Origin: Ostreococcus lucimarinus
Taxonomy: Eukaryota
Length of the DNA: 64,000 nucleotides
Reading direction: 5' to 3' (one strand)
NCBI GenBank assembly: GCA_000092065.1
Contig: CP000601.1
The notes under the pieces are model-generated. The model was not told where the DNA came from. It worked only from the letters and a program-made list of their open reading frames with translations, and searched no databases. Positions 1 through 10,292 of the stretch are shown piece by piece (the first letter of the stretch is position 1; each line of letters starts with the position of its first letter). The position numbers and the translations under genes were made by a program.

Positions 1-698
1 CGGGGAGTTACTTGTACGACACGTCGATTCCGCTCAAGCTGCCGTCGTTGTCGGAGAGCGTGCGCGTACCGGCGTACGTGGCACACGATTACATGCAGCG
101 CACGATGCGATTGACGGCATTTTCACGGTCGTGGCCGAGCTTGTTTGTCGCCGCGAAGAACACGCGATCGTCCCTGCACGTCGATCAGTGGCAGGGGCAC
201 TTTTTCATGGCCGTGGTGCGCGGCACGAAGCGATGGACCGTCTTCTCGCGCGAATCGCTCGCGTTTTTACGGCCGAGCTGGTCGCGCGGCACGCTCGATC
301 CCGCGATGCCACCGTTGGAGGAACAAGAAGAGATGGGAATGTTACCGCTCCCGCGTGAATTCGGCGCGCGCCGATGGGACGTCGATCTTGGCCCGGGCGA
401 GGTGCTTTTCGTGCCGGGCGGCTCGCCGCACGCCGTTCGAAACCTCGATTGCACGGTGGCGTTCGCGGGAAACTTCGTCGACGACGTCAATCTGGACCGC
501 GTGTTGGAAGATTTAAAGCTCATGGCCGCCAAAGATCCCGCGTTGATGGAGAGCTACCGAGCGCTCGACGAGGTGGATTTCGACGACGAAGGCGCCGCGC
601 TCGCGGCGGGCGACGACGACGTCCACGCGGGCGCGTTCGACGCGAACGCGCGCGTCGTGCGAGTCGCCGATTATCTCGCGGGGGGGCGACTCGTGTGA
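1..698 (+). CDS. JmjC/cupin-domain protein, 5'-partial (runs off the window start)
   Basis: ORF frame is open back to nt 3. Translation has a JmjC-like core (HVDQWQGHFFMAVVRGTKRWTVF ... GEVLFVPGGSPHAVRNL), the double-stranded beta-helix fold of 2OG/Fe oxygenases. High GC3 codon usage matches neighbouring genes. Confidence 0.55.
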   Translation, partial: GSYLYDTSIPLKLPSLSESVRVPAYVAHDYMQRTMRLTAFSRSWPSLFVAAKNTRSSLHVDQWQGHFFMAVVRGTKRWTVFSRESLAFLRPSWSRGTLDPAMPPLEEQEEMGMLPLPREFGARRWDVDLGPGEVLFVPGGSPHAVRNLDCTVAFAGNFVDDVNLDRVLEDLKLMAAKDPALMESYRALDEVDFDDEGAALAAGDDDVHAGAFDANARVVRVADYLAGGRLV

Positions 699-808
699 TG
701 GGATGGATGTCTCGCGTCGCGTCTCGGAGTTCGGGACGAGGGGTTCGCGGCGTCGTGAAAAAGTGACAAAAAAATCAGGGAAGCCGAGCTCCCCCCATGG
801 GGGTGAAT

Positions 809-1036
809 CTCACAGCGATAAATTTTTTAAAGTACTATCCGTCACCCCGAAACGACGAAAGTCACAGTGTTGTCGTGTCGCTTTTCCATCACGGACAATC
901 GGGTGTGGGAAAAAGTAAGGTGTGATGTCGACACATCTCTTCCTGCGGGTTTCGATCCCGCGGCTTCCAGATCTCTATCGGAGCAGCCGTCATATTCGAC
1001 GGAGACTTTTTCCTAACAGTCTGACACTCTACCAGC
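809..1036. repeat. 228-bp dispersed/direct repeat, copy 1 (about 98.7% identical to 6744-6971)
   Basis: Aligned by eye to copy 2 with 3 mismatches and no indels. Contains a GCGGG-TTTCGAT-CCCGC hairpin and the 14-mer TGTCGACACATCTC. Confidence 0.9.
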
Positions 1037-1066
1037 AAAATTGTTTACAGAGATACCGCGACGAGA

Positions 1067-1443
1067 TTGAAGCAATACAAGGAACTCGATGGGCACCTGA
1101 TGAACGCCTCCGTGTGGGACGAGTATTTGACCCCAGAGATGCTCAGTCTGTATAATCCCGAAACAGACCAATTCGAGGAGCCCAAGCACTGGCTAAATGG
1201 GAAGCGTGTAGGAATTGCAATACTGGCGGATGATGTAAAATCGAGTCCGTTGCTGTCTAACAAAGCCTGGCGCAACCTGTGTATCAAATGCCGCCACCTT
1301 GGATCCTTCCCTGACAGTTCTCCACCAATAGGGTGCTCGATTTTCTGCGCGAGGTCAAGGACGCCGACGCGACGCTCCCAGACAAGTTGAAAGCCGAGGT
1401 ACCGACCATGCTTCAGAAAGGCGTGCGCGCGTATCTGGATTAA
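1067..1443 (+). CDS. hypothetical protein; reading frame changes near 1280-1320, possibly a very short 37-nt intron or a frameshift
   Basis: ORF 1067-1390 (first ATG near 1097) codes WDEYLTPEML...GKRVGIAILADDVKSSPLL. A second frame then continues with a protein-like C-terminus, VLDFLREVKDADATLPDKLKAEVPTMLQKGVRAYLD, to TAA 1441-1443. Removing gtatcaaatg...ccctgacag (GT..AG, 37 nt) joins the frames. No family recognised. Confidence 0.3.
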
Positions 1444-1666
1444 GCTTCACAAGTACCGTGGTGTGGGTAACATCTGGGACATCTTATCGAAATAATTCAT
1501 CGATGTTCGCCAGGAGATCGAGGAACAGGTGCCGTAAATTACGAAGAGCGTTTCGATTTACAATTTATATGATCCTCTAGCTTGAAAAATAGATCTCCGT
1601 CAGTGGCCGTGGGTGTGTTTGCCACAACTTGATTTGATAGTAATTGACATTTTTTTACCGCTCTCA

Positions 1667-3100
1667 TTAGTGCGCGTGTGCGTGTGAGTCTCCGCCACCG
1701 CCACCGCCTGTGCAATGCTTGTGGTTGAGGAGCACGAGACTGATGGCAACAACGCCGACGATGAAGGTGAGAATGCTCGTCGCGCGAAGACGAGGTGAAG
1801 TGGCGCTCACTGATACTCGGGGCATGCACTCTGCGGCGGCGATTTGCAGATAGACTCCAGCACCGAAGGCGAGCAGCAGTCCATGCCAGAAGTCGTTGTT
1901 ATTTCCCGATCCAACACTAATGAGGACGCCAAGAATGACACTCAAGCCGGAAACGAAGTTTAAAGTCAGCGTCGGCAACGGCGCGAGATCGCCCTGGAAG
2001 GGGTCTACGAGCACCAAGTAGTCAGCAAGCTCTTGAGCGATTTCGTGATAGACGGTCGCGGCGGTGATCGACCATCCCATGGTACTGTCGCAGTTCAGAA
2101 AGCCGAAGCCAATGAAAATACCATCCACTAGGTTGTGCATGAAATCTCCAAGAATGATACCACTTCGAACGCGATACTTGTGTGAGTTACAAGTACAAGT
2201 ATCACAGTCATCTTGAGCGCCTTTGACTGCAAGTTCCGCATCGGTTGTCTTCGCTGTATTTCCAAGAGTTGGGAACACGACAGAGATACCAAAGTCGATG
2301 AAGTAGGCCATGAGAAAGCCGAAGATAGAAGCGGAAGCCCACCATGCGGTCTGCTCTGCCTCATCCGAGCCAGCAGGTTTGATTAAATGCGTGGCTTCGT
2401 AGAACATCAGATAAAACGCAGCCGAAAGAAGTGCGCCGGCGGCAAACGAGTTAATTGTGCAACTCACAGTTTCAGGGTACGCTTTCTGCTTCTTAGCGAT
2501 ACTCGGGATGAGAAAGACCACACCAGAAAGTGTGACGATATTGACGATAATTGCCGCCCCAATGGCGTTGGCCCACGGTTTTGATTTCGATTCGCTCACG
2601 GTGGATGCTTCGGGAAGTGAAGCTTTTGGCACCACGTCATCTCCGTGGAGGTCCTTGAGATAGTGCGCGTCGCGCTCGAACTCGGTGGGAACGTGCTCAG
2701 CGAAGATTGAGATCGCGTCGATGCCAGTCGTATTAATCTTAAACGGCGTCGTGTGCCAGGTGTTGTCAAATTCAAGGTTGACACACCCACTATCAGGTGT
2801 CAAAACACTATCTCGTATCTTAGCCGTCGTACAAGCTCCCCCGATTGCGGTATCACCGCTATCCTCGCGGGCTTCGAGCTCGTCGTGTCCGGCGGCGATT
2901 TCGTCGTAGATGACCATTTTCATGGTATCGGCGGCGTACTTATCGGCCACCTTTTGCGCCTGCCACACGTATTCATTCTCTGGCGTCTCAAAGATTCCAG
3001 CCCATTCGAATGCGTGCGCGCCGGACGCGTGCGCGCCGCGCTGCGCGAGCGCGCTCGCGACGATCGCGATGCCACCACCGAGCGCGCTCGCGCAGCGCAT
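1667..3100 (-). CDS. ZIP-family (ZRT/IRT-like) metal transporter with large N-terminal ectodomain and signal peptide
   Basis: Translation carries the ZIP signature HNLVDGIFIGFGF and a second metal-binding helix HEIAQELADY, with multiple TM helices. The putative signal peptide MRCASALGGGIAIVASALA starts at the ATG near 3100; the ORF extends to 3196. Confidence 0.8.
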   Translation of the reverse strand: MRCASALGGGIAIVASALAQRGAHASGAHAFEWAGIFETPENEYVWQAQKVADKYAADTMKMVIYDEIAAGHDELEAREDSGDTAIGGACTTAKIRDSVLTPDSGCVNLEFDNTWHTTPFKINTTGIDAISIFAEHVPTEFERDAHYLKDLHGDDVVPKASLPEASTVSESKSKPWANAIGAAIIVNIVTLSGVVFLIPSIAKKQKAYPETVSCTINSFAAGALLSAAFYLMFYEATHLIKPAGSDEAEQTAWWASASIFGFLMAYFIDFGISVVFPTLGNTAKTTDAELAVKGAQDDCDTCTCNSHKYRVRSGIILGDFMHNLVDGIFIGFGFLNCDSTMGWSITAATVYHEIAQELADYLVLVDPFQGDLAPLPTLTLNFVSGLSVILGVLISVGSGNNNDFWHGLLLAFGAGVYLQIAAAECMPRVSVSATSPRLRATSILTFIVGVVAISLVLLNHKHCTGGGGGGDSHAHAH

Positions 3101-3325
3101 CGTTCGCCCTCGTCGTCGCTCGACCGTCCTCGCACCGCGTGCGCGTTCGCGCGGCGGCATCGTCGTCTTCGTGTTCTTCGTGTTTTCGTTCGTCATCGTT
3201 TCCGTCGTCGTCGTCGTCTTCGCCGGCGTCGGTAAGTGCGGCTGCGCACAAACTAAAGCGGCATACGAACCGAACCGGCGCGATGGAGGGCGGTCGTTTA
3301 TAAGTCACGACTCGCGAACGACAAA

Positions 3326-3590
3326 ATGTCGACATCCGCCGCAGTGTCGACACATCTCGGTGGTACTTGGATATGTCGAAATATGTCGACATGTGCGTCG
3401 AGACGTTTTTCGTATATAGATGCATCACGGGGTTCAATGCGTACACGCGCGTGGGTAAATATGTCGACATGCGTGTCGACATGTTTACGACGCGCGTCGC
3501 GACGCGATCCGTGATGGGCTTCGCGGGGCGTCGCGTACGACGATCCTCGACACGTGCACGACGCGAATCGTCGACACGTGCACGACGCGC
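3326..3590. promoter_or_regulatory. Palindrome-rich divergent intergenic region between the ZIP and COG0523 genes
   Basis: Five TGTCGACA palindromes (3327-3334, 3345-3352, 3384-3391, 3461-3468, 3474-3481) plus a half-site at 3373-3380. TATATA at 3413-3418. A 19-bp tandem duplicate TCGACACGTGCACGACGCG (3547-3565 and 3569-3587), each copy containing CACGTG. Confidence 0.4.
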
Positions 3591-3658
3591 GCGCATCGCC
3601 GCACTTCGCGACGCCTCTTCGGCTCGTTCGCGCGCGGAGACGTCGATCGCCGTACATC

Positions 3659-5299
3659 ATGTCCACACCCGCCGCAATCGCCAATCATAATCGATTGCCG
3701 GTGACAACGCTGTGCGGGTTCCTCGGCGCTGGGAAGACGACAACTCTGAAACGCGTGCTCGAAGCTAAGCGAGACGCGAACGGAAAGTTTCGGTGTGCCG
3801 TCGTCGTGAACGACGTCGCGGAGTTGAACATCGACAAAAAATTAATCGATGATTCCGCTTTGCTGCAGAGCGACGAGGTGGTTGCCATGCAGAACGGATG
3901 CGTGTGCTGTTCGTTGAGCGGAGACTTTGTAAAACAAATCGGGGACATGGCCAAGAGTGGCAATTTTGACTACATGATCGTAGAGGCATCAGGAGTGTCG
4001 GAACCGGCGGAAATTGCGAAACTCTTCGCAAATTGTGAGGACGATCACGATCATGAAGCTGCGCACGTTGATGAGCATGAACATTTGAGCACACTGGCGC
4101 GGCTGGATACGTGCGTGACGGTCATCGCTGCAGGTGACTTTCTCGACATGATTGATTCTTTCAGGGCGTCAGCTGTGAACAGGCAGTCTTACTCTCAATT
4201 GTTGGCTGAACAGATAGAGTACGCGAATGTCGTCGTATTGAACAAGGTCGACACTGTCGATGACGAACAACTCGCCGAGATTAAAGCGCAGATACAACTT
4301 CTCAATTCACGTGCTGATATTCTTGAAGCTGTGAACGGCGCGATCGACGTTACGCGAATCGTCAATACAAAACTTTACAAAGAGAATGACTTTGCTGGTT
4401 TCATAACATGGGAACAAGAGATAGAAGCAACATCTGTGAAGTCATGCTGCGCCGGCGCTAGGGACAAAGGTGAGTCTCCATGCTGTAAGCGAGCTCGCAT
4501 GAGAGAAACAGCCTTAAGCGAGGTCACGCTTGCACCAAGTTCTTCCCAAACACGTCACGATAGTCGGTTCGGTATTACGTCTTTCATTTACCGAGCCAGA
4601 AGACCTTTTCATCCCAAACGGTTTTTAGGCTCATTTGTCGAGCGCTTCTTCAGCTCCCTCGAGGCCGATGACCGTGATGAAGAAAAAGATGAAGAGACAC
4701 CAAGTGTAGACTGGAGTGCAGTGAAAGATATTCGAGCGCGACAAGAAGCGATGAAACTCAAGCGCCGTAAAAGGGAAGGTGAAATTGGTGTGCTGCTACG
4801 TTCGAAGGGTGTAACGTGGCTCAGTGATGCCCACGACTTGATAATTGTTTTCAGTCAGGCTGGTAATATTTACTCTCTCGAAGGATCAAGCCGATGGACC
4901 GCGCTGAATAAAAATGCTTGGGTCGGCTCACAGGGGATAAAGCAAGAACTTCGTAAAGACTGGGAGGGGCCTTATGGTGATCGCCGACAAGAACTGGTGT
5001 TCATTGGCAAGGATCTTAAATACGATGAAATTCAATCAACGTTGGACTCTTGCCTCTTGACCGACGAAGAATTCGAAATGGGTTCTGATGGCTGGAGAGC
5101 AGTCATGGGTGATGTCTTTCTAGACGAAGACGACGAAGACGAAGACGACGAAGTCGATGACGAAGACGACGAAGAAATCGACGAAGATTTGGTCGACGAC
5201 GAGGAGATCGAAGAGGAGATCAGGCCGCAACCCACTTCAAAGTCGAAGGCAAAACCAAAGGCAAAGTCGGCGCCCTCTCAAAACGACGGCTTAGTCTGA
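3659..5299 (+). CDS. COG0523 / CobW-type G3E GTPase metallochaperone (zinc-chaperone-like), with His-rich insert and poly-acidic tail
   Basis: P-loop LCGFLGAGKTT (in VTTLCGFLGAGKTTTLKRVL). CxCC metal motif GCVCCSL. His-rich stretch CEDDHDHEAAHVDEHEH. C-terminal DEDDEDEDDEVDDEDDEE tail. Start taken at MSTPAAIANHN (3659); the ORF itself is open from 3554. Confidence 0.85.
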   Translation: MSTPAAIANHNRLPVTTLCGFLGAGKTTTLKRVLEAKRDANGKFRCAVVVNDVAELNIDKKLIDDSALLQSDEVVAMQNGCVCCSLSGDFVKQIGDMAKSGNFDYMIVEASGVSEPAEIAKLFANCEDDHDHEAAHVDEHEHLSTLARLDTCVTVIAAGDFLDMIDSFRASAVNRQSYSQLLAEQIEYANVVVLNKVDTVDDEQLAEIKAQIQLLNSRADILEAVNGAIDVTRIVNTKLYKENDFAGFITWEQEIEATSVKSCCAGARDKGESPCCKRARMRETALSEVTLAPSSSQTRHDSRFGITSFIYRARRPFHPKRFLGSFVERFFSSLEADDRDEEKDEETPSVDWSAVKDIRARQEAMKLKRRKREGEIGVLLRSKGVTWLSDAHDLIIVFSQAGNIYSLEGSSRWTALNKNAWVGSQGIKQELRKDWEGPYGDRRQELVFIGKDLKYDEIQSTLDSCLLTDEEFEMGSDGWRAVMGDVFLDEDDEDEDDEVDDEDDEEIDEDLVDDEEIEEEIRPQPTSKSKAKPKAKSAPSQNDGLV

Positions 5300-5399
5300 T
5301 GTCTTTCTAGGTGACACTGAAGCGGAACAGGGTGGAGATGTGGACTCGGGCAACTCTTCCGACATGTAAGCTTGTCCTTTATAGTGAGCCCACACCGAT

Positions 5400-5696
5400 G
5401 TGAGCGCAAGTCATTTTTATGCACACAGTGACATCTTCATCGAATACCAGACGTGGTTGCCAGCGGCTGCGCGCGGTCAAGATAGCGCGACGAAGGTCGG
5501 CAATAAGCTCAAGGACTTCTTCAAGAAGGAAAAGGGCCACAGGGTCCCAATGGAAGAGGACCACCTGAGGCAAGGTAGAGACGAGAAGGGCGTCTATTGG
5601 GAAATTCACCGCGACGGGTGCTTCGAGTGGCTGAAGGACAATGGGTACACAGGGGAGACGGAGCTCGCGCCGGCGGTCGTCTGGTGCTCATACTAA
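5400..5696 (+). CDS. small hypothetical protein (98 aa)
   Basis: Open reading frame in the lower-GC island. The protein-like segment GVYWEIHRDGCFEWLKDNGYTGE has no recognisable family, so coding status is uncertain. Confidence 0.25.
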   Translation: MSASHFYAHSDIFIEYQTWLPAAARGQDSATKVGNKLKDFFKKEKGHRVPMEEDHLRQGRDEKGVYWEIHRDGCFEWLKDNGYTGETELAPAVVWCSY

Positions 5697-6130
5697 TTTT
5701 GTAATTCGTACATTTGCAATATGAAGACTCAACGAGACACCAAAAAGACCATGGTTTGGATCCTGACGAAATGACGAATGACGAACTGTTTTCATAAAGG
5801 TCCACACTGTTGCTTGTCATAGATCTAAAATAAAAATAAACATTAAAATATTTTAACATTTCGTCATTTTCATCATTGGTACACACAAAGTGTCACCGAA
5901 CGACGGGTTGACGAATTTGTGGACGACAAAACAAGTTCGTCATTTCGTCAGGTCTCGACGGATCACGAACGTCCAGGTGTGAAATCAGGCGGTTCGGTAT
6001 CTACATTCCGGACCTTGCAGCCCACGCAGCGATACGCGTACCTATGGTCTCTCGGATGTGACTGCAAACCGCAGGAGGAGGCACTTTTGGCAACAATATT
6101 TTCTTAGGGATAGATAGGTAACCAGGACAA

Positions 6131-6628
6131 ATGCCGTCGGGATGCGTGTACGAAATGTTTAGCGATAATGCGAAATGTAACAAAACGTACATCGGATCGA
6201 CGACGGGTTCGCTCAGAGCGCGCCTTGCCTCGCATAAATACGCACGACATCCAATCTTCACGTTTGGCGACGCGGACGTGAGAGTTCTCGAAAAGGACAT
6301 TCCAGCTGGAGAGCTCCATCAACGTAAAGGTGCCTACATGAGAGAGAAGCGTGACGGCTTATTCAACTCCCGAGCTGCTGGACGCAGCCAGAAACACGCG
6401 TGCCGCGAGAACGTGGACGAGAGTCCAGCCTACAGCAGAGCTCAATATACGCCGAAGCGGGACGGCGGCGATGGTAACTACAGACAACTCAATTATTACA
6501 AGCAGCACGCAAAAGGAATACTGCGCAAGACGTGCCTCAAGAATGCCCGAGCGCGCGGCACGCTGCCTTCGAAGCGCAGTCTCGACAAGTATCAATTTAC
6601 GGTAGATGAGTTACGCGGCTTGGCTTGA
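6131..6628 (+). CDS. GIY-YIG nuclease-domain protein (homing-endonuclease-like)
   Basis: N-terminus GCVYEMF-x9-KTYIGSTTGSLRARLASH fits the GIY-x(10-11)-YIG core with the following Arg and His/Glu. Lies in the lower-GC island, immediately upstream of repeat copy 2. Confidence 0.55.
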   Translation: MPSGCVYEMFSDNAKCNKTYIGSTTGSLRARLASHKYARHPIFTFGDADVRVLEKDIPAGELHQRKGAYMREKRDGLFNSRAAGRSQKHACRENVDESPAYSRAQYTPKRDGGDGNYRQLNYYKQHAKGILRKTCLKNARARGTLPSKRSLDKYQFTVDELRGLA

Positions 6629-6743
6629 CCACTTCACTCACACGATTGGTTCTGGAGAAATCTTACATGCGGTACATCAACGTCGATGTGCGGTTTTATC
6701 ATGTTGGGGTGCCCCAACTCAAAAAAAAAGTTTATTTTTATTA

Positions 6744-6971
6744 CTCATAGCGATAAATTTTTTAAAGTACTATCCGTCACCCCGAAACGACGAAAGTCAC
6801 AGTGTTGTCGTGTCGCTTTTCCATCACGGACAATCGGGTATGGGAAAAAGTAAGGTTTGATGTCGACACATCTCTTCCTGCGGGTTTCGATCCCGCGGCT
6901 TCCAGATCTCTATCGGAGCAGCCGTCATATTCGACGGAGACTTTTTCCTAACAGTCTGACACTCTACCAGC
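6744..6971. repeat. 228-bp direct repeat, copy 2
   Basis: Near-identical to 809-1036. Preceded by an A9 run and an AT-rich stretch (6700-6743). Confidence 0.9.
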
Positions 6972-7232
6972 TGAGTTAAGGAAGACTGTTTATGCATACG
7001 CACAACATCGCGGACATTCGACTGCCCATGCTCTTTATTTCGAGGCTTAACTCGGCGAGGTGGACGAATAATTGGTATTATACGTCGCTCGATGGTGGGT
7101 TTGCGACAGATCTTCGCGGCTTGACGCCGTCGATCCGCGATCGCGAATGTTACAGGTTGAGGGCTCGGGCGAGGACGTCGGTGGTTTTCGCGCGTTCGTT
7201 CGTTCGTCGTCACTCCGCGGTCGAATCCATCG

Positions 7233-10200
7233 GTGGATACGATGGATTCGACGCGGTGCGCGACGTGCCGGGCCGTCGTGCGCGGCGGCGCGGCGACGTG
7301 CGCGGAATGCGGGGCGCCGCAGGGCTACGATTCGGATTCGGACGCAACGATTCGCGTCGACGATGACGATGATGACGATGATTCTTCGCACTACGCCCGG
7401 GACGCCCGGGACTCGAGCGCTTCAGACGCCGACTCGAGCACTTCCGCCTCGTCCACGACTCGGCGTCGGCGGGAAGTCGAGTCGCGCGAGCGGGAGATGG
7501 AGGAATCGCCCGAGGCGTTGAAATTGTTGTACATGCTGAGTTTGTACACCGACGCGTCTCAGAAACAGTCGAAGTCGAAGTCTGCGGTTTCCAACAACAA
7601 CAACAACAAACGTTCTCCCTGGATTCGCGAGCTGCCGCTCCTGGTGCTCGTGTACGAGGGCATCGTGCGAAACGCGGTGTTCGATTACGATTACGCGCCA
7701 AAATCAGAAAAGATATTTGGAGCGTGTCCGAGGTATTTGAACGTCTCGGAAGAGGGACGAGACGATTTAGACGATTTGCGTGAGCTTGGTTTCATCACGG
7801 CGCTCAAGGTGACGAGCGAGACGTACGATCACTCGACGTTGTTGAAGATTTCCAAGAAGGGGAGCGAATTCTTGCAGAGGATGACGGCCTCGGGACGGTT
7901 CACGAGCGCGATGCGCCAGTCGGTAGATTCGTTGGTGCACGAAGCTGGTCACCTCCTCGAGGTGCGGTACGACCGCGAGTCCTCGGATTTTTTCCTCACC
8001 GTCCCCTCGATCGGGGTCCGCATCCGCTCCACCATCACGGACGTCGAAGACGTGCCGTACGTCTCGTCTCCGTACATCCCTCCGCACATGCTGAGCTCCG
8101 ATGCGTTCACACCGAACGCGTTGAACGGGCACAAAAAGGCAAAACGCGTGCTCGGCGGCGCCGTTCAAAGTAGTCGCGATATTCGCGACCCGCGCCTGAG
8201 TGAAAGTATCTTGCTCGACTCGGTGAAAATCATCGTCACCGAATACGTGCCGATGGGATCGAACGAAATGGTTTCTTTCTGTAGAAAACTCGGCACGGGA
8301 GACCGCGTCGCGGGCGGTATGTTCACCGCGGAAGCGAGCGCGACGCAGGACGAATTCAACATGGTGGTCGGGATCAACGCCGACAATAAAACCGAGCTAA
8401 AAGTCCTCGACGTCGACGAAACGCGATTCGTAAACGTCGAGGCAGACTTGCTCGCCACCGGGGCGCCCAAGAGTAACTTGGTGCAGCAGCAAATCGAGGT
8501 TTTCGGCATCAACTTTCGGGAAAACGGCGCCATCACTTACGGCATCGTCGTCAACGGCATCGCCGATCGAATTCGAAACGATATCAGCGTCGATTTACTC
8601 GCGCGCTTACTTTCCGACGTCCACGAAGACACGAGCTCGCTGGTGGGAAATTTATTTTCCGAGCGTCAGCGCTCCATGTTGAACATCACATACAAGGGCG
8701 AGCCGGACAATCGCGACAAGTTTACGTGCATCATCGCCGAGCGCGCGACGCCAAAACTGAAAGCCGCGGCGTACATGGATGGTGAAGATAACGAAAACGA
8801 GCTCAAGCAAGTCATCGGCGCGACGTTTTACGCGTACGACCTGAACGAACAAGAAGTCATCGTCTTTGGTTCACGCGGTGTCGTCGTCTTTGGTCCGCGC
8901 ACCGAACGTCATCACAAGCTTCTCGCGACATATTCAGCGTTCCAAGCTCGCTCGTTGTTCATCAAAAGTGTCTTCAGCAGTTGTTTCGCGCTGAACGACG
9001 AGTTGAAGAAGACGCGAGCGTTGATTGAAACCTATCAGATCGATCCGACGAACGTAACGCGCATTCGTTCGCGCCTCGCCGATCACACGACGACGGTGAC
9101 GATCTTGAGCGCCACTCAGCAGTTCGTGCTCGAGTCGCTCGAAAACGTCGACACGTCTCGTGAAAAGTTGAGCGCGGATATGAGCGACGGCGCGTCGCAA
9201 GTGTTGTACGACTTGTTTCAGTTGGAACCGTCGTGGAAACGCTTGCAAAGACGCGCCGTTGACTTGGAAAAAGTCATCGCGGCGTGCGTCAACGATCTCG
9301 AGTCTCTGCGAGAAATGAACGCCGTCATCGGCTCACGAAGAAAGCTCCGCATCAACGAGGCGATAGAAGGGACGACGAAAAACTTAGAGGATGCTTTCCG
9401 AGCGCAGGCGCGCAACAGCACCACGCTCGAGGTGACGCAAGTGATTTTGTCGGGGACGCTCGCGTTTGACATTCTCGATCGATTCACGGGGCAATACCTT
9501 TCGTTCACCGAGATTCGATGGGCCGTCGAAGCGGTGCAGCCGTACATAGTGAATGTTCCCGCGGTTTGGTTCATCTTGAACATGCTCGCGTGGTCGGCGT
9601 TGGGCGGTGGAATTGTTTATTTGATGCGCTACTTGGCCTACATGCATTGCAGCGTGGAGACGAAAAAGCTCACACTCAATAAACCCATTCATTTGTCGCG
9701 ATGGCGGCGATTCATCGCGACGCGCAACGTGGAGTCGACGGCTTTTAAGGAGGAGAACAACCGTCGCGTGGTGAAATACGGCTGGACCGAGCCCATCGAC
9801 GTCAAAAAGTGGAAAGGAACGCCCCCGAAGATTAACGTCACCATCGACGAGCGATACGGTTTCATCTTGCAAGCGATGATCATCATCAATAAGCGCACGT
9901 GTACGCTCTCCGGCGATGCGGTGTGGCGTCAATTTTGGAGCGATGTTTTCGTCGCTCGCAACGTCCACGATCAAAGTCGAGAGCTGTTTGACACCGACAC
10001 CGGCGACCGTTTGCAAACGGCCGAATATTCGTCAGAAGAAGAAGACGAGACTCGCCGCGACGTCACGGCCAAGATCATCGGCATCGACAACCGAAAGTCC
10101 ACGTTAAAGTGGCGCGATGGCAGGCAAATCCTCGCGCAAGACGACACCGACGACGACATCGATTCGGACGAGGAGGCGATCGCGAAGACGGGCGATTTGA

Positions 10201-10292
10201 CGTTTGAAGGCTTCGTCGCGTCCAGGTCGTTGAAACTCGCTCGAGAGGAAGAGAAGGCTAAAAAGAAACGAGCGGCAAGGATGGAAAAGTGA
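7233..10292 (+). CDS. large hypothetical protein (1019 aa): N-terminal zinc-ribbon, acidic tract, C-terminal TM segment
   Basis: Long ORF with host-like GC3 bias. CATCRAVVRGGAATCAECG (C-x2-C-x10-C-x2-C) at the N-terminus. D8 run. Hydrophobic helix AVWFILNMLAWSALGGGIVYLMRYLAY near residue 780. (AAC)6 repeat coding an Asn run. No family recognised. Confidence 0.55.
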   Translation: MDTMDSTRCATCRAVVRGGAATCAECGAPQGYDSDSDATIRVDDDDDDDDSSHYARDARDSSASDADSSTSASSTTRRRREVESREREMEESPEALKLLYMLSLYTDASQKQSKSKSAVSNNNNNKRSPWIRELPLLVLVYEGIVRNAVFDYDYAPKSEKIFGACPRYLNVSEEGRDDLDDLRELGFITALKVTSETYDHSTLLKISKKGSEFLQRMTASGRFTSAMRQSVDSLVHEAGHLLEVRYDRESSDFFLTVPSIGVRIRSTITDVEDVPYVSSPYIPPHMLSSDAFTPNALNGHKKAKRVLGGAVQSSRDIRDPRLSESILLDSVKIIVTEYVPMGSNEMVSFCRKLGTGDRVAGGMFTAEASATQDEFNMVVGINADNKTELKVLDVDETRFVNVEADLLATGAPKSNLVQQQIEVFGINFRENGAITYGIVVNGIADRIRNDISVDLLARLLSDVHEDTSSLVGNLFSERQRSMLNITYKGEPDNRDKFTCIIAERATPKLKAAAYMDGEDNENELKQVIGATFYAYDLNEQEVIVFGSRGVVVFGPRTERHHKLLATYSAFQARSLFIKSVFSSCFALNDELKKTRALIETYQIDPTNVTRIRSRLADHTTTVTILSATQQFVLESLENVDTSREKLSADMSDGASQVLYDLFQLEPSWKRLQRRAVDLEKVIAACVNDLESLREMNAVIGSRRKLRINEAIEGTTKNLEDAFRAQARNSTTLEVTQVILSGTLAFDILDRFTGQYLSFTEIRWAVEAVQPYIVNVPAVWFILNMLAWSALGGGIVYLMRYLAYMHCSVETKKLTLNKPIHLSRWRRFIATRNVESTAFKEENNRRVVKYGWTEPIDVKKWKGTPPKINVTIDERYGFILQAMIIINKRTCTLSGDAVWRQFWSDVFVARNVHDQSRELFDTDTGDRLQTAEYSSEEEDETRRDVTAKIIGIDNRKSTLKWRDGRQILAQDDTDDDIDSDEEAIAKTGDLTFEGFVASRSLKLAREEEKAKKKRAARMEK

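Follow-up and report, generated by a model that had tools for sequence, protein, structure and literature searches.

A direct repeat in Ostreococcus lucimarinus comprises most of a nuclear tRNA-Asn(GUU) gene and borders a strain-variable insertion of 5.7 kb

In bacteria and archaea, genomic islands are known that are linked to tRNA genes, an intact tRNA gene marking one boundary and a directly repeated 3' portion of that gene marking the opposite boundary. In the marine picoalgal genus Ostreococcus, transformants of O. tauri have been described in which an integrated plasmid is flanked by a 518-bp direct target duplication and filler DNA (PMC8002553), and the Asn(GTT) gene of the same species is a published type II circularly permuted gene of Mamiellales (Maruyama 2010; Soma 2014, PMC3978253). 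The nuclear tRNA genes of O. lucimarinus number only 44 (PMC3673656). This article concerns 64,000 nucleotides of O. lucimarinus DNA (contig CP000601.1, assembly GCA_000092065.1), referred to as the window, in which a 228-bp direct repeat borders a segment of 5.7 kb with genes for a ZIP-family metal transporter and a CobW/COG0523 GTPase. Literature searches yielded no account of the locus and none of cargo insertions linked to tRNA genes in Mamiellales, which is not proof of their absence.

The 228-bp repeat consists of the 3' four-fifths of a nuclear tRNA-Asn gene together with 128 nt of its downstream flank; it duplicates part of the target site and is not an element of its own. Comparison of the window with itself by BLAST aligned positions 809-1036 with 6744-6971 in direct orientation, 5.7 kb apart and with 98.7% identity, a match certainly beyond chance, and revealed no third copy in the 64 kb. 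The three mismatches (813/6748, 905/6840, and 922/6857) all lie within the part corresponding to the 3' flank of the tRNA, and the aligned ends read ...AAT/CTCA and ...CTACCAGC. The two copies had been recognized correctly in an original prediction made from the window alone, as had the hairpin GCGGG-TTTCGAT-CCCGC (GCGGGTTTCGATCCCGC) within each of them; GATGTCGACACATCTC is likewise present in both. The hairpin had been compared there to the T-arm of the initiator tRNA, and it is indeed a T-arm, with the loop AUCGAAA on the opposite strand, belonging to a complete tRNA gene whose identity is asparagine and not initiator. Dispersed copies, which had been anticipated, were not encountered: when JGI metagenomes were scanned for a 32-mer of the repeat, each of the 10 contigs obtained mapped to this locus, and viral contigs (IMG/VR) gave no match to this 32-mer, the CobW gene, or the GIY-YIG-like open reading frame (ORF) of the same segment. 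Since the repeat is confined to one locus in the window and these collections, it is the scar of an insertion and not a dispersed short interspersed element (SINE).

The 14 bases to the right of the second copy (6972-6985) complete the gene. The covariance model RF00005 of Rfam, a comparison that had been proposed with the original prediction, matches from 6985 to 6872 with 49 bits (gathering score 29) and with the whole model, positions 1-71, covered; its alignment contains a 42-nt insertion after the anticodon loop, consisting of one loop base and a 41-nt intron at the canonical position 37/38. The anticodon is GUU, the discriminator is G (G73), and the minimum free energy (MFE) fold of the intron-removed sequence is a cloverleaf with stems of 7/4/5/5 bp at -22.7 kcal/mol. 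ARAGORN in bacterial mode reported no tRNA because the gene carries an intron; it thus missed a gene that Rfam found. The first copy begins at G15 and has lost most of the A-box region, in place of which unrelated sequence follows, and no Rfam match to it was obtained.

The same gene is also present in three of the sequences compared with the window (these carry L numbers below), namely L018, L019, and L042. Within this comparison of a few Ostreococcus lineages, L018 differs from the window by compensatory changes in the T stem (GCGGG/CCCGC to AUGGG/CCCAU), the anticodon stem (UCAGA/UCUGG to UUCGA/UCGAG), and the D stem (ACUC/GAGU to GCUC/GAGC), and the exons of L019, a third Ostreococcus lineage, are identical to those of the window. 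The intron measures 41 nt in the window, 39 nt in L019, and 34 nt in L018. Because the stems are compensated in L018, the exons are identical in L019, and the loop is kept, the gene is conserved and presumably functional. Eukaryotic initiator tRNAs are characterized by A54 and A60 in the T-loop (AUCGAAA), and this initiator-like loop is retained in the elongator tRNA-Asn of the window, L018, and L019, i.e., in three Ostreococcus lineages. An initiator identity was considered and rejected, given the anticodon GUU in place of CAU, the pair U1:A72 in place of A1:U72, and an anticodon stem (UCAGA/UCUGG) without a run of three G:C pairs.

The DNA between the two copies is missing from the corresponding site of several relatives. 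On chromosome 13 of O. tauri (L017) and in L018, the MJ1567-like gene lies within 430-520 bp of the JmjC gene with tRNA-Asn in between, and neither ZIP, CobW, nor the GIY-YIG ORF occurs between these neighbors. The wild haplotype L042, with 96-99% identity to the window, contains the JmjC gene, a single 228-bp repeat that includes an intact tRNA (49 bits), and the MJ1567-like gene; L036 and L041 show the same empty arrangement with an extra block in the T-stem, and the site is also unoccupied in the lineage of L039/L040, which is 92% identical on the side of MJ1567. The whole occupied arrangement is spanned by single contigs (L026, L023), and the arrangement of the window is therefore not an assembly artefact. 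Judged from these sequences, the 5.7 kb between the copies is an insertion whose presence varies between strains, and the site has been seen in empty, singly occupied, and doubly occupied states (Table 1). At the junction of the short allele there are 3 nt of extra bases.

Table 1. Coordinates of features in the window, modules of the locus, and the alleles in which these modules are combined
Feature	Position	Strand	Remarks
Complete nuclear tRNA-Asn(GUU) gene	6872-6985	-	exon 1 6985-6949 (nt 1-37); intron 6948-6908 (41 nt, 37/38); exon 2 6907-6872 (nt 38-73)
Repeat copy 1, 5'-truncated duplicate	809-1036	-	tRNA nt 15-73 and intron (1036-937), same 128-nt flank (936-809); without nt 1-14
Repeat copy 2	6744-6971	-	tRNA nt 15-73 and intron (6971-6872), 128 nt of 3' flank (6871-6744); continues into tRNA nt 14-1 at 6972-6985
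T-arm of truncated copy	945-961	-	stem GCGGG/CCCGC, loop AUCGAAA in tRNA sense; equivalent in complete gene 6880-6896
14-mer TGTCGACACATCTC	6861-6874		last 2 nt of acceptor stem, G73, first 11 nt of 3' trailer; equivalent in copy 1 926-939
Third exact 14-mer	3345-3358		in RTGTCGACAY-type palindrome cluster between ZIP and CobW genes
Inserted cargo	1037-6743		modules B and G; absent at syntenic site of O. tauri, L018, wild L042/L036/L041
P-loop NTPase fragment	1037-1443	+	frameshifted C-terminal two-thirds of a family of ~300 aa; begins exactly at the junction of repeat and cargo
ZIP-family metal transporter	1667-3100	-	identical to XP_001420991.1 and XP_001422904.1 of O. lucimarinus CCE9901
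CobW/COG0523 G3E GTPase	3659-5299	+	nearest homolog outside the population 53% identical
98-aa ORF	5400-5696	+	always accompanies the CobW gene
Segment missing in short alleles	5758-6830		inverted-repeat region, GIY-YIG-like ORF (6131-6628), first 87 bp of copy 2; right-hand repeat then 141 bp
JmjC/cupin gene, 3' part	12-698	+	conserved left neighbor of the tRNA locus (synteny)
MJ1567/MJ1566_N-like gene	7233-10292	+	conserved right neighbor (synteny), head-to-head with tRNA
Module A	1-808		JmjC side
Module R	809-1036		repeat
Module B	1037-5757		NTPase fragment, ZIP, promoter, CobW, 98-aa ORF
Module G	5758-6743		inverted repeats, GIY-YIG-like ORF
Module C	6972 onward		tRNA nt 14-1, MJ1567-like gene
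Allele A-R-C			L042
Allele A-R-B-G-R-C			window, L004, L026
Allele A-R-B-R(141 bp)-C			without 5758-6830; L001, L003, L023, L025
Allele A-R-X-T2-C			L043
Allele B-G-R-X-T2-C			L044, L047
Allele B-R(141 bp)-X-T2-C			L045, L046

The composition of the cargo differs from that of its surroundings, with GC contents at third codon positions (GC3) of 0.61 for ZIP, 0.53 for CobW, and 0.60 for the GIY-YIG-like gene versus 0.80 and 0.73 for the flanking genes. Among 5.8 billion proteins, the identity of CobW homologs drops from 97-100% directly to at most 53%, with no relative between 53% and 97%, and no Mamiellales ortholog is listed among them, which suggests that the CobW/COG0523 gene is a recent arrival from an unsampled donor; its best outside matches are found in Cymbomonas and stramenopiles. 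These data also bear on the opposite explanation, according to which the cargo is ancestral at the site and the empty arrangements are deletions by recombination between the direct repeats. Such recombination would leave exactly the order JmjC, repeat, MJ1567 seen in L042, but the cargo is missing here from O. tauri, from L018, and from L039/L040 with their 92% identity, the gap in CobW identity and the deviant GC3 speak against it, and the duplication itself would still require an origin of the insertion type, so that this explanation is very improbable.

We infer that the ancestral locus, with the order JmjC> <tRNA-Asn MJ1567>, probably gained its 5.7 kb of cargo through the repair of a break accompanied by a long target duplication. 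In the O. lucimarinus lineage, foreign DNA would have been placed between A14 and G15 of the tRNA, a second copy of the 3' part of the tRNA and its flank keeping an intact tRNA beside the MJ1567-like gene, and the displaced, promoter-less copy would have stayed beside the JmjC gene. Pol III genes act as fork barriers, and since this tRNA is transcribed head-on to a fork arriving from the JmjC side, it would be a plausible stall site. The process may have begun with a break or a stalled fork inside the Pol III tRNA gene, after which the 3' part and flank of the sister would be copied, followed by a template switch into ectopic DNA and end-joining, with a long target duplication around the captured DNA as the result. 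The direct repeats would then serve as substrates for homologous recombination, from which the series of empty, long, short, cargo X, and composite alleles could arise.

Break repair is favored because a gene is cut at the cargo edge, the flank is of host type, a precedent exists in O. tauri, and other rearrangements have struck the same tRNA. The left edge of the cargo cuts a P-loop NTPase gene and hence looks arbitrary: positions 1037-1390 match residues ~110-215 of P-loop NTPases of ~300 aa, the N-terminal P-loop part is gone, and the rest is frameshifted. The duplicated copy carries 128 nt of host-type flank. The fragility of the locus is apparent from the permuted gene in O. tauri, an inverted pseudo-half in L019, a 100-bp block located 2 nt from the junction, and a junction with microhomology in L050.

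Several observations weigh against break repair, some of them concerning a second cargo, X, a 3.8-kb segment of 63% GC that is unrelated to B and contains an orphan ORF of 487 aa. B and X meet the truncated tRNA at the identical nucleotide, A14/G15 (...CTACCAGC), such that ...CTCTACCAGC has three continuations, namely the native 5' end TGAGTTAAGG, B with AAAATTGTTT, and X with GAGGTGGCGG. Break repair leads one to expect a position that is not reused, an expectation that failed here; as random breaks are not expected to coincide, the shared junction implies either a very precise break site or site-specific recombination. X further brings its own 3' part of the tRNA, as an attachment site borne by an element would: this T2 segment covers nt 15-73 of tRNA-Asn with identical exons, a different intron, and its own trailer, which has a T7 run and is without TGTCGACA. 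No donor locus was found for B or X. Finally, excision rather than an ancestral state could account for the empty alleles of the near-identical population.

Because the exact nucleotide is reused and X brings its own tRNA fragment, site-specific or homology-guided (Campbell-type) integration is retained as the main rival, at a rather low probability. The D-loop of tRNA-Asn would here be an attachment site reused by circular modules carrying 3' fragments of tRNA-Asn, and the fragment of each module would rebuild the gene and push the resident fragment outward, producing tandem arrays like those of bacterial and archaeal tRNA-linked islands. Junctions of B and X that agree to the base, a distinct T2 fragment with a T7 terminator in X and displacement of the native-type fragment and flank to the far end, the composite order B-G-R-X-T2-C expected for serial integration, and the coexistence of empty, single, and double occupancy in the population all fit this scheme. 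The contigs L006 and L016 are permuted as a circle or a tandem array would be, but their order also fits a de Bruijn graph cycle through the repeat; they were downgraded as evidence for a circle, the path from cargo through repeat to cargo being an assembly-graph cycle. Against integration, Pfam and PHROGs identified no recombinase family for any cargo ORF of B or X, with some room left for a novel enzyme by the AlphaFold (AF2) models of the 487-aa protein of X and the 165-aa GIY-YIG-like ORF, which reach a pLDDT of ~35 and are unusable for fold comparison. Moreover, the edge of B truncates a gene, the supposedly element-borne copy of the window allele holds 128 nt of host-type flank, rearrangements at this tRNA elsewhere differ in kind (permuted gene, inversion), and viral contigs (IMG/VR) carry neither the repeat nor the CobW gene nor the GIY-YIG-like ORF, on which ground a viral origin was rejected. 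The broader proposition that the D-loop of tRNA-Asn (A14/G15) is a reusable eukaryotic integration site, whose modules bring 3' fragments, rebuild the gene, stack, and are lost by recombination between repeats, is unlikely; if true, it would be a eukaryotic counterpart of the prokaryotic tRNA islands, distributing a zinc-acquisition cassette through wild Ostreococcus.

The 487-aa ORF of X (L033:216-1679, minus strand) reads its last 8 codons (AGRVSDC*) from exon 1 of the tRNA in the truncated copy, and the protein collection contains just a single, distant homolog of it (70% identity); the idea that it is truncated at the junction was dropped, its C-terminus being about as long as that of this homolog. 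In L050 (reverse complement, 3920-3953), the microhomology TTCGAC connects X, up to its position 3235, with the last 32 bp of the repeat, and B follows, which reflects either illegitimate joining at the locus or a chimeric contig.

The other subject of the original prediction was the 14-mer TGTCGACACATCTC, which occurs in the window exactly three times (at 926, 3345, and 6861), once in each repeat copy and once in the promoter region between the ZIP and CobW genes, as had been stated. In tRNA sense it consists of GA from the end of the acceptor stem, G73, and ATGTGTCGACA at the start of the trailer. A tRNA-derived, SINE-like dispersed element that seeded the zinc-promoter motif, or was seeded by it, had been proposed from this match, and hardly any probability can be assigned to this origin. 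The repeat does hold tRNA sequence, the core ATGTCGACAC / GTGTCGACAC fits RTGTCGACAY, the consensus of the land-plant ZDRE (zinc deficiency response element), and, given that both sequences have the 8-mer TGTCGACA, six more matching bases have a probability of ~0.012, a value computed post hoc. However, the repeat is not dispersed, retains its intron, and extends 101 nt past the likely Pol III terminator, the T5 at +23..27 that is the sole T-run of the flank, and its first copy is without nt 1-14. The A9 tract at 6721-6729, correctly reported as preceding the second copy only, reads as T9 in tRNA sense, and is thus on the wrong strand and part of the inserted DNA.

The distribution of the motif also speaks against seeding. 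The 14-mer is present beside the single tRNA of the insertion-free haplotype L042 and therefore predates the insertion. L039/L040 read GATGTGACACATCTC instead, with a 2-nt gap and no GTCGAC core; C-to-T variants (TGTTGACA) occur in the first copy of L003/L025, the second copy of L014, and L035; and the trailers of L018, L019, and T2 are unrelated and without the 14-mer. The promoter copy is invariant in 16 contigs. An exact match of at least 14 nt with the rest of the window was shared by 64% of random 228-bp pieces (300 trials). No evidence was found that the repeat or the promoter motif seeded the other, only 14 bases being common to them, and the match looks coincidental, a ZDRE-like palindrome that probably arose in place in the trailer plus six coincidental bases.

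A functional reading, in which the palindrome of the trailer is a working zinc-response element coupling the tRNA or the MJ1567-like gene to the regulator of ZIP and CobW, would fit any model of origin and is quite improbable. It draws on the exact match to RTGTCGACAY, on the enrichment of TGTCGACA in the window (10 found versus 1.4 expected, about 7-fold, with 5 of the 10 clustered at 3327-3481), and on the position of the second copy ~370 bp upstream of the MJ1567-like gene. On the other side stand the variants and losses of the motif described above and the report that F-bZIP factors, associated with the ZDRE consensus RTGTCGACAY, are absent from green algae (PMC9643250). The site of the repeat lies in a tRNA trailer and is variable or absent in relatives; it is the promoter cluster that fits a ZDRE. 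There, at 3326-3481 between the divergent ZIP and CobW/COG0523 genes, five ZDRE-matching TGTCGACA palindromes are located, three of which are ATGTCGACAT, and the stretch 3375-3626 varies in length between strains. An Rfam match to BTH_s1 at 3418-3603 (24 bits versus a gathering score of 74) was dismissed as a chance match to these palindromes.

Additional blocks interrupt the tRNA gene in other strains. A 100-nt block lies in the D-loop between C16 and T17 (L008:1807-1906, equivalent to a position between 6969 and 6970 of the window), and an 86-nt block lies in the T-stem (L003:1242-1327 at window position 946, and L014 at window position 6881); in the first copy of other strains, the 86-bp block interrupts the repeat and the 14-mer is mutated. 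In tRNA sense, both blocks have the spliceosomal-intron-like form GTAAGT...CTGAC...pyrimidine-rich...CAG. The 100-nt block was found inside the complete tRNA in 30 of the contigs examined, and most wild haplotypes are without an uninterrupted tRNA-Asn at the locus. No further copies of either block were detected in ~0.5 Mb of related sequence and the two are unrelated to each other, which made an assignment to an introner family impossible, and no obvious bulge-helix-bulge motif was apparent in their MFE folds. The blocks might be removed from the transcript as spliceosomal-type introns in a tRNA gene.

Further observations concern the genes of the cargo. The acidic D/E repeat of CobW (about 5124-5296) varies in length between strains, giving proteins of 507, 510, and 546 aa. 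For both the ZIP and the GIY-YIG-like protein, RefSeq contains identical proteins from O. lucimarinus CCE9901 under two accessions each, and the reference genome therefore contains two identical loci. The 165-aa GIY-YIG-like ORF is part of a cluster comprising 898 near-identical proteins, and CCE9901 has at least three accessions for it; some alleles contain the ORF and others lack it, and inverted repeats occur in the same module (5762-5778 / 5936-5952). On its own it may constitute a mobile nuclease gene. Located next to the rebuilt tRNA, it is a candidate nuclease, an assignment based on a sub-threshold Pfam match (E = 0.009) and a UniRef name. Pfam and PHROGs returned nothing for the 98-aa ORF, the NTPase fragment, and the ORFs of X. 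A second genomic context was observed in two independent assemblies (L024:1-4008 and L006:1-1798), in which a choline transporter, an exonuclease, and an LHC gene are joined inside the palindrome cluster (window position 3408), continuing with CobW, the 98-aa ORF, GIY, the repeat, and MJ1567, without ZIP or JmjC. The duplicate RefSeq accessions of ZIP and GIY-YIG imply a second locus, which this context may represent; no contigs were obtained when the ZIP protein and the GIY-YIG paralog P0049 were looked up by exact match.

Rearrangements at this tRNA have also occurred in other lineages. On chromosome 13 of O. tauri (L017:11395-11500, minus strand), the spacer between the JmjC and MJ1567 genes contains the circularly permuted tRNA-Asn(GTT), composed of the 3' half, a 23-nt linker, and the 5' half. 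Once rejoined, the two halves form a cloverleaf at -29.5 kcal/mol; the T-loop is the standard TTCGAAC, and the sequence is strongly unlike that of the O. lucimarinus gene. In the more distant lineage L019, a degenerate copy of the tRNA 5' half (mid-intron, exon 1, and 5' flank) is inverted relative to the intact tRNA (L019:6893-7004 and L019:~10000-10065), and between the tRNA and the pseudo-half lies a Mito_carr-JmjC block whose orientation is opposite to that in O. tauri, with the inversion breakpoints at the tRNA.

What appeared to be a mystery repeat is thus a real tRNA gene and the scar of a recent gene gain. In wild populations of this marine picoalga, which is abundant, the ZIP and COG0523 zinc-acquisition pair is polymorphic for presence and absence and may matter in zinc-poor water. 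A single tRNA gene has been a breakpoint in several Ostreococcus lineages, with an insertion here, an inversion in L019, and a permuted gene in O. tauri. If the reuse of one nucleotide reflected a site-specific process, the locus would provide a parallel, rare among eukaryotes, to the tRNA-linked islands of bacteria and would bear on the origin of permuted tRNA genes.

Compared with the tRNA-linked islands of bacteria and archaea, the locus shares the intact tRNA on one side and the directly repeated 3' portion on the opposite side, the strain-variable cargo of deviant composition with an accessory metal-uptake function, the empty sites in relatives, and the presence of different islands at one site, also in tandem. 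It differs from them in belonging to a eukaryotic nuclear genome, in a repeat of 141-228 bp that starts in the D-loop, has an intron, and reaches 128 nt past the gene, in the lack of an integrase detectable with Pfam or PHROGs, and in a cargo edge that truncates a gene. With the target duplications of O. tauri transformants (PMC8002553) and T-DNA-type end-joining it has in common the genus, a direct duplication (518 bp there, 228 bp here), and extra bases at junctions, such as those of the short allele; those insertions are random laboratory events, whereas the present one is natural, lies in a tRNA gene, and shares its nucleotide with a second cargo. tRNA-derived SINEs likewise contain tRNA-derived sequence with a T-arm, but the repeat described here is not dispersed, includes unique flank as well as an intron, is missing the 5' A-box part in one copy, and has neither a tail nor short target duplications. 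In the case of the plant ZDRE (bZIP19/23), the core of the 14-mer fits the consensus and five such sites lie between the ZIP and COG0523 genes, yet F-bZIPs are reportedly absent from green algae, and the site in the repeat is neither in a metal-gene promoter nor conserved. The permuted tRNAs of Mamiellales (PMC3978253) include the orthologous tRNA-Asn(GTT) locus of O. tauri, and a partial duplication of the gene is common to both; unlike them, the complete gene of the window is colinear, its partial copy lies 5.7 kb downstream rather than upstream, and no permuted product is implied.

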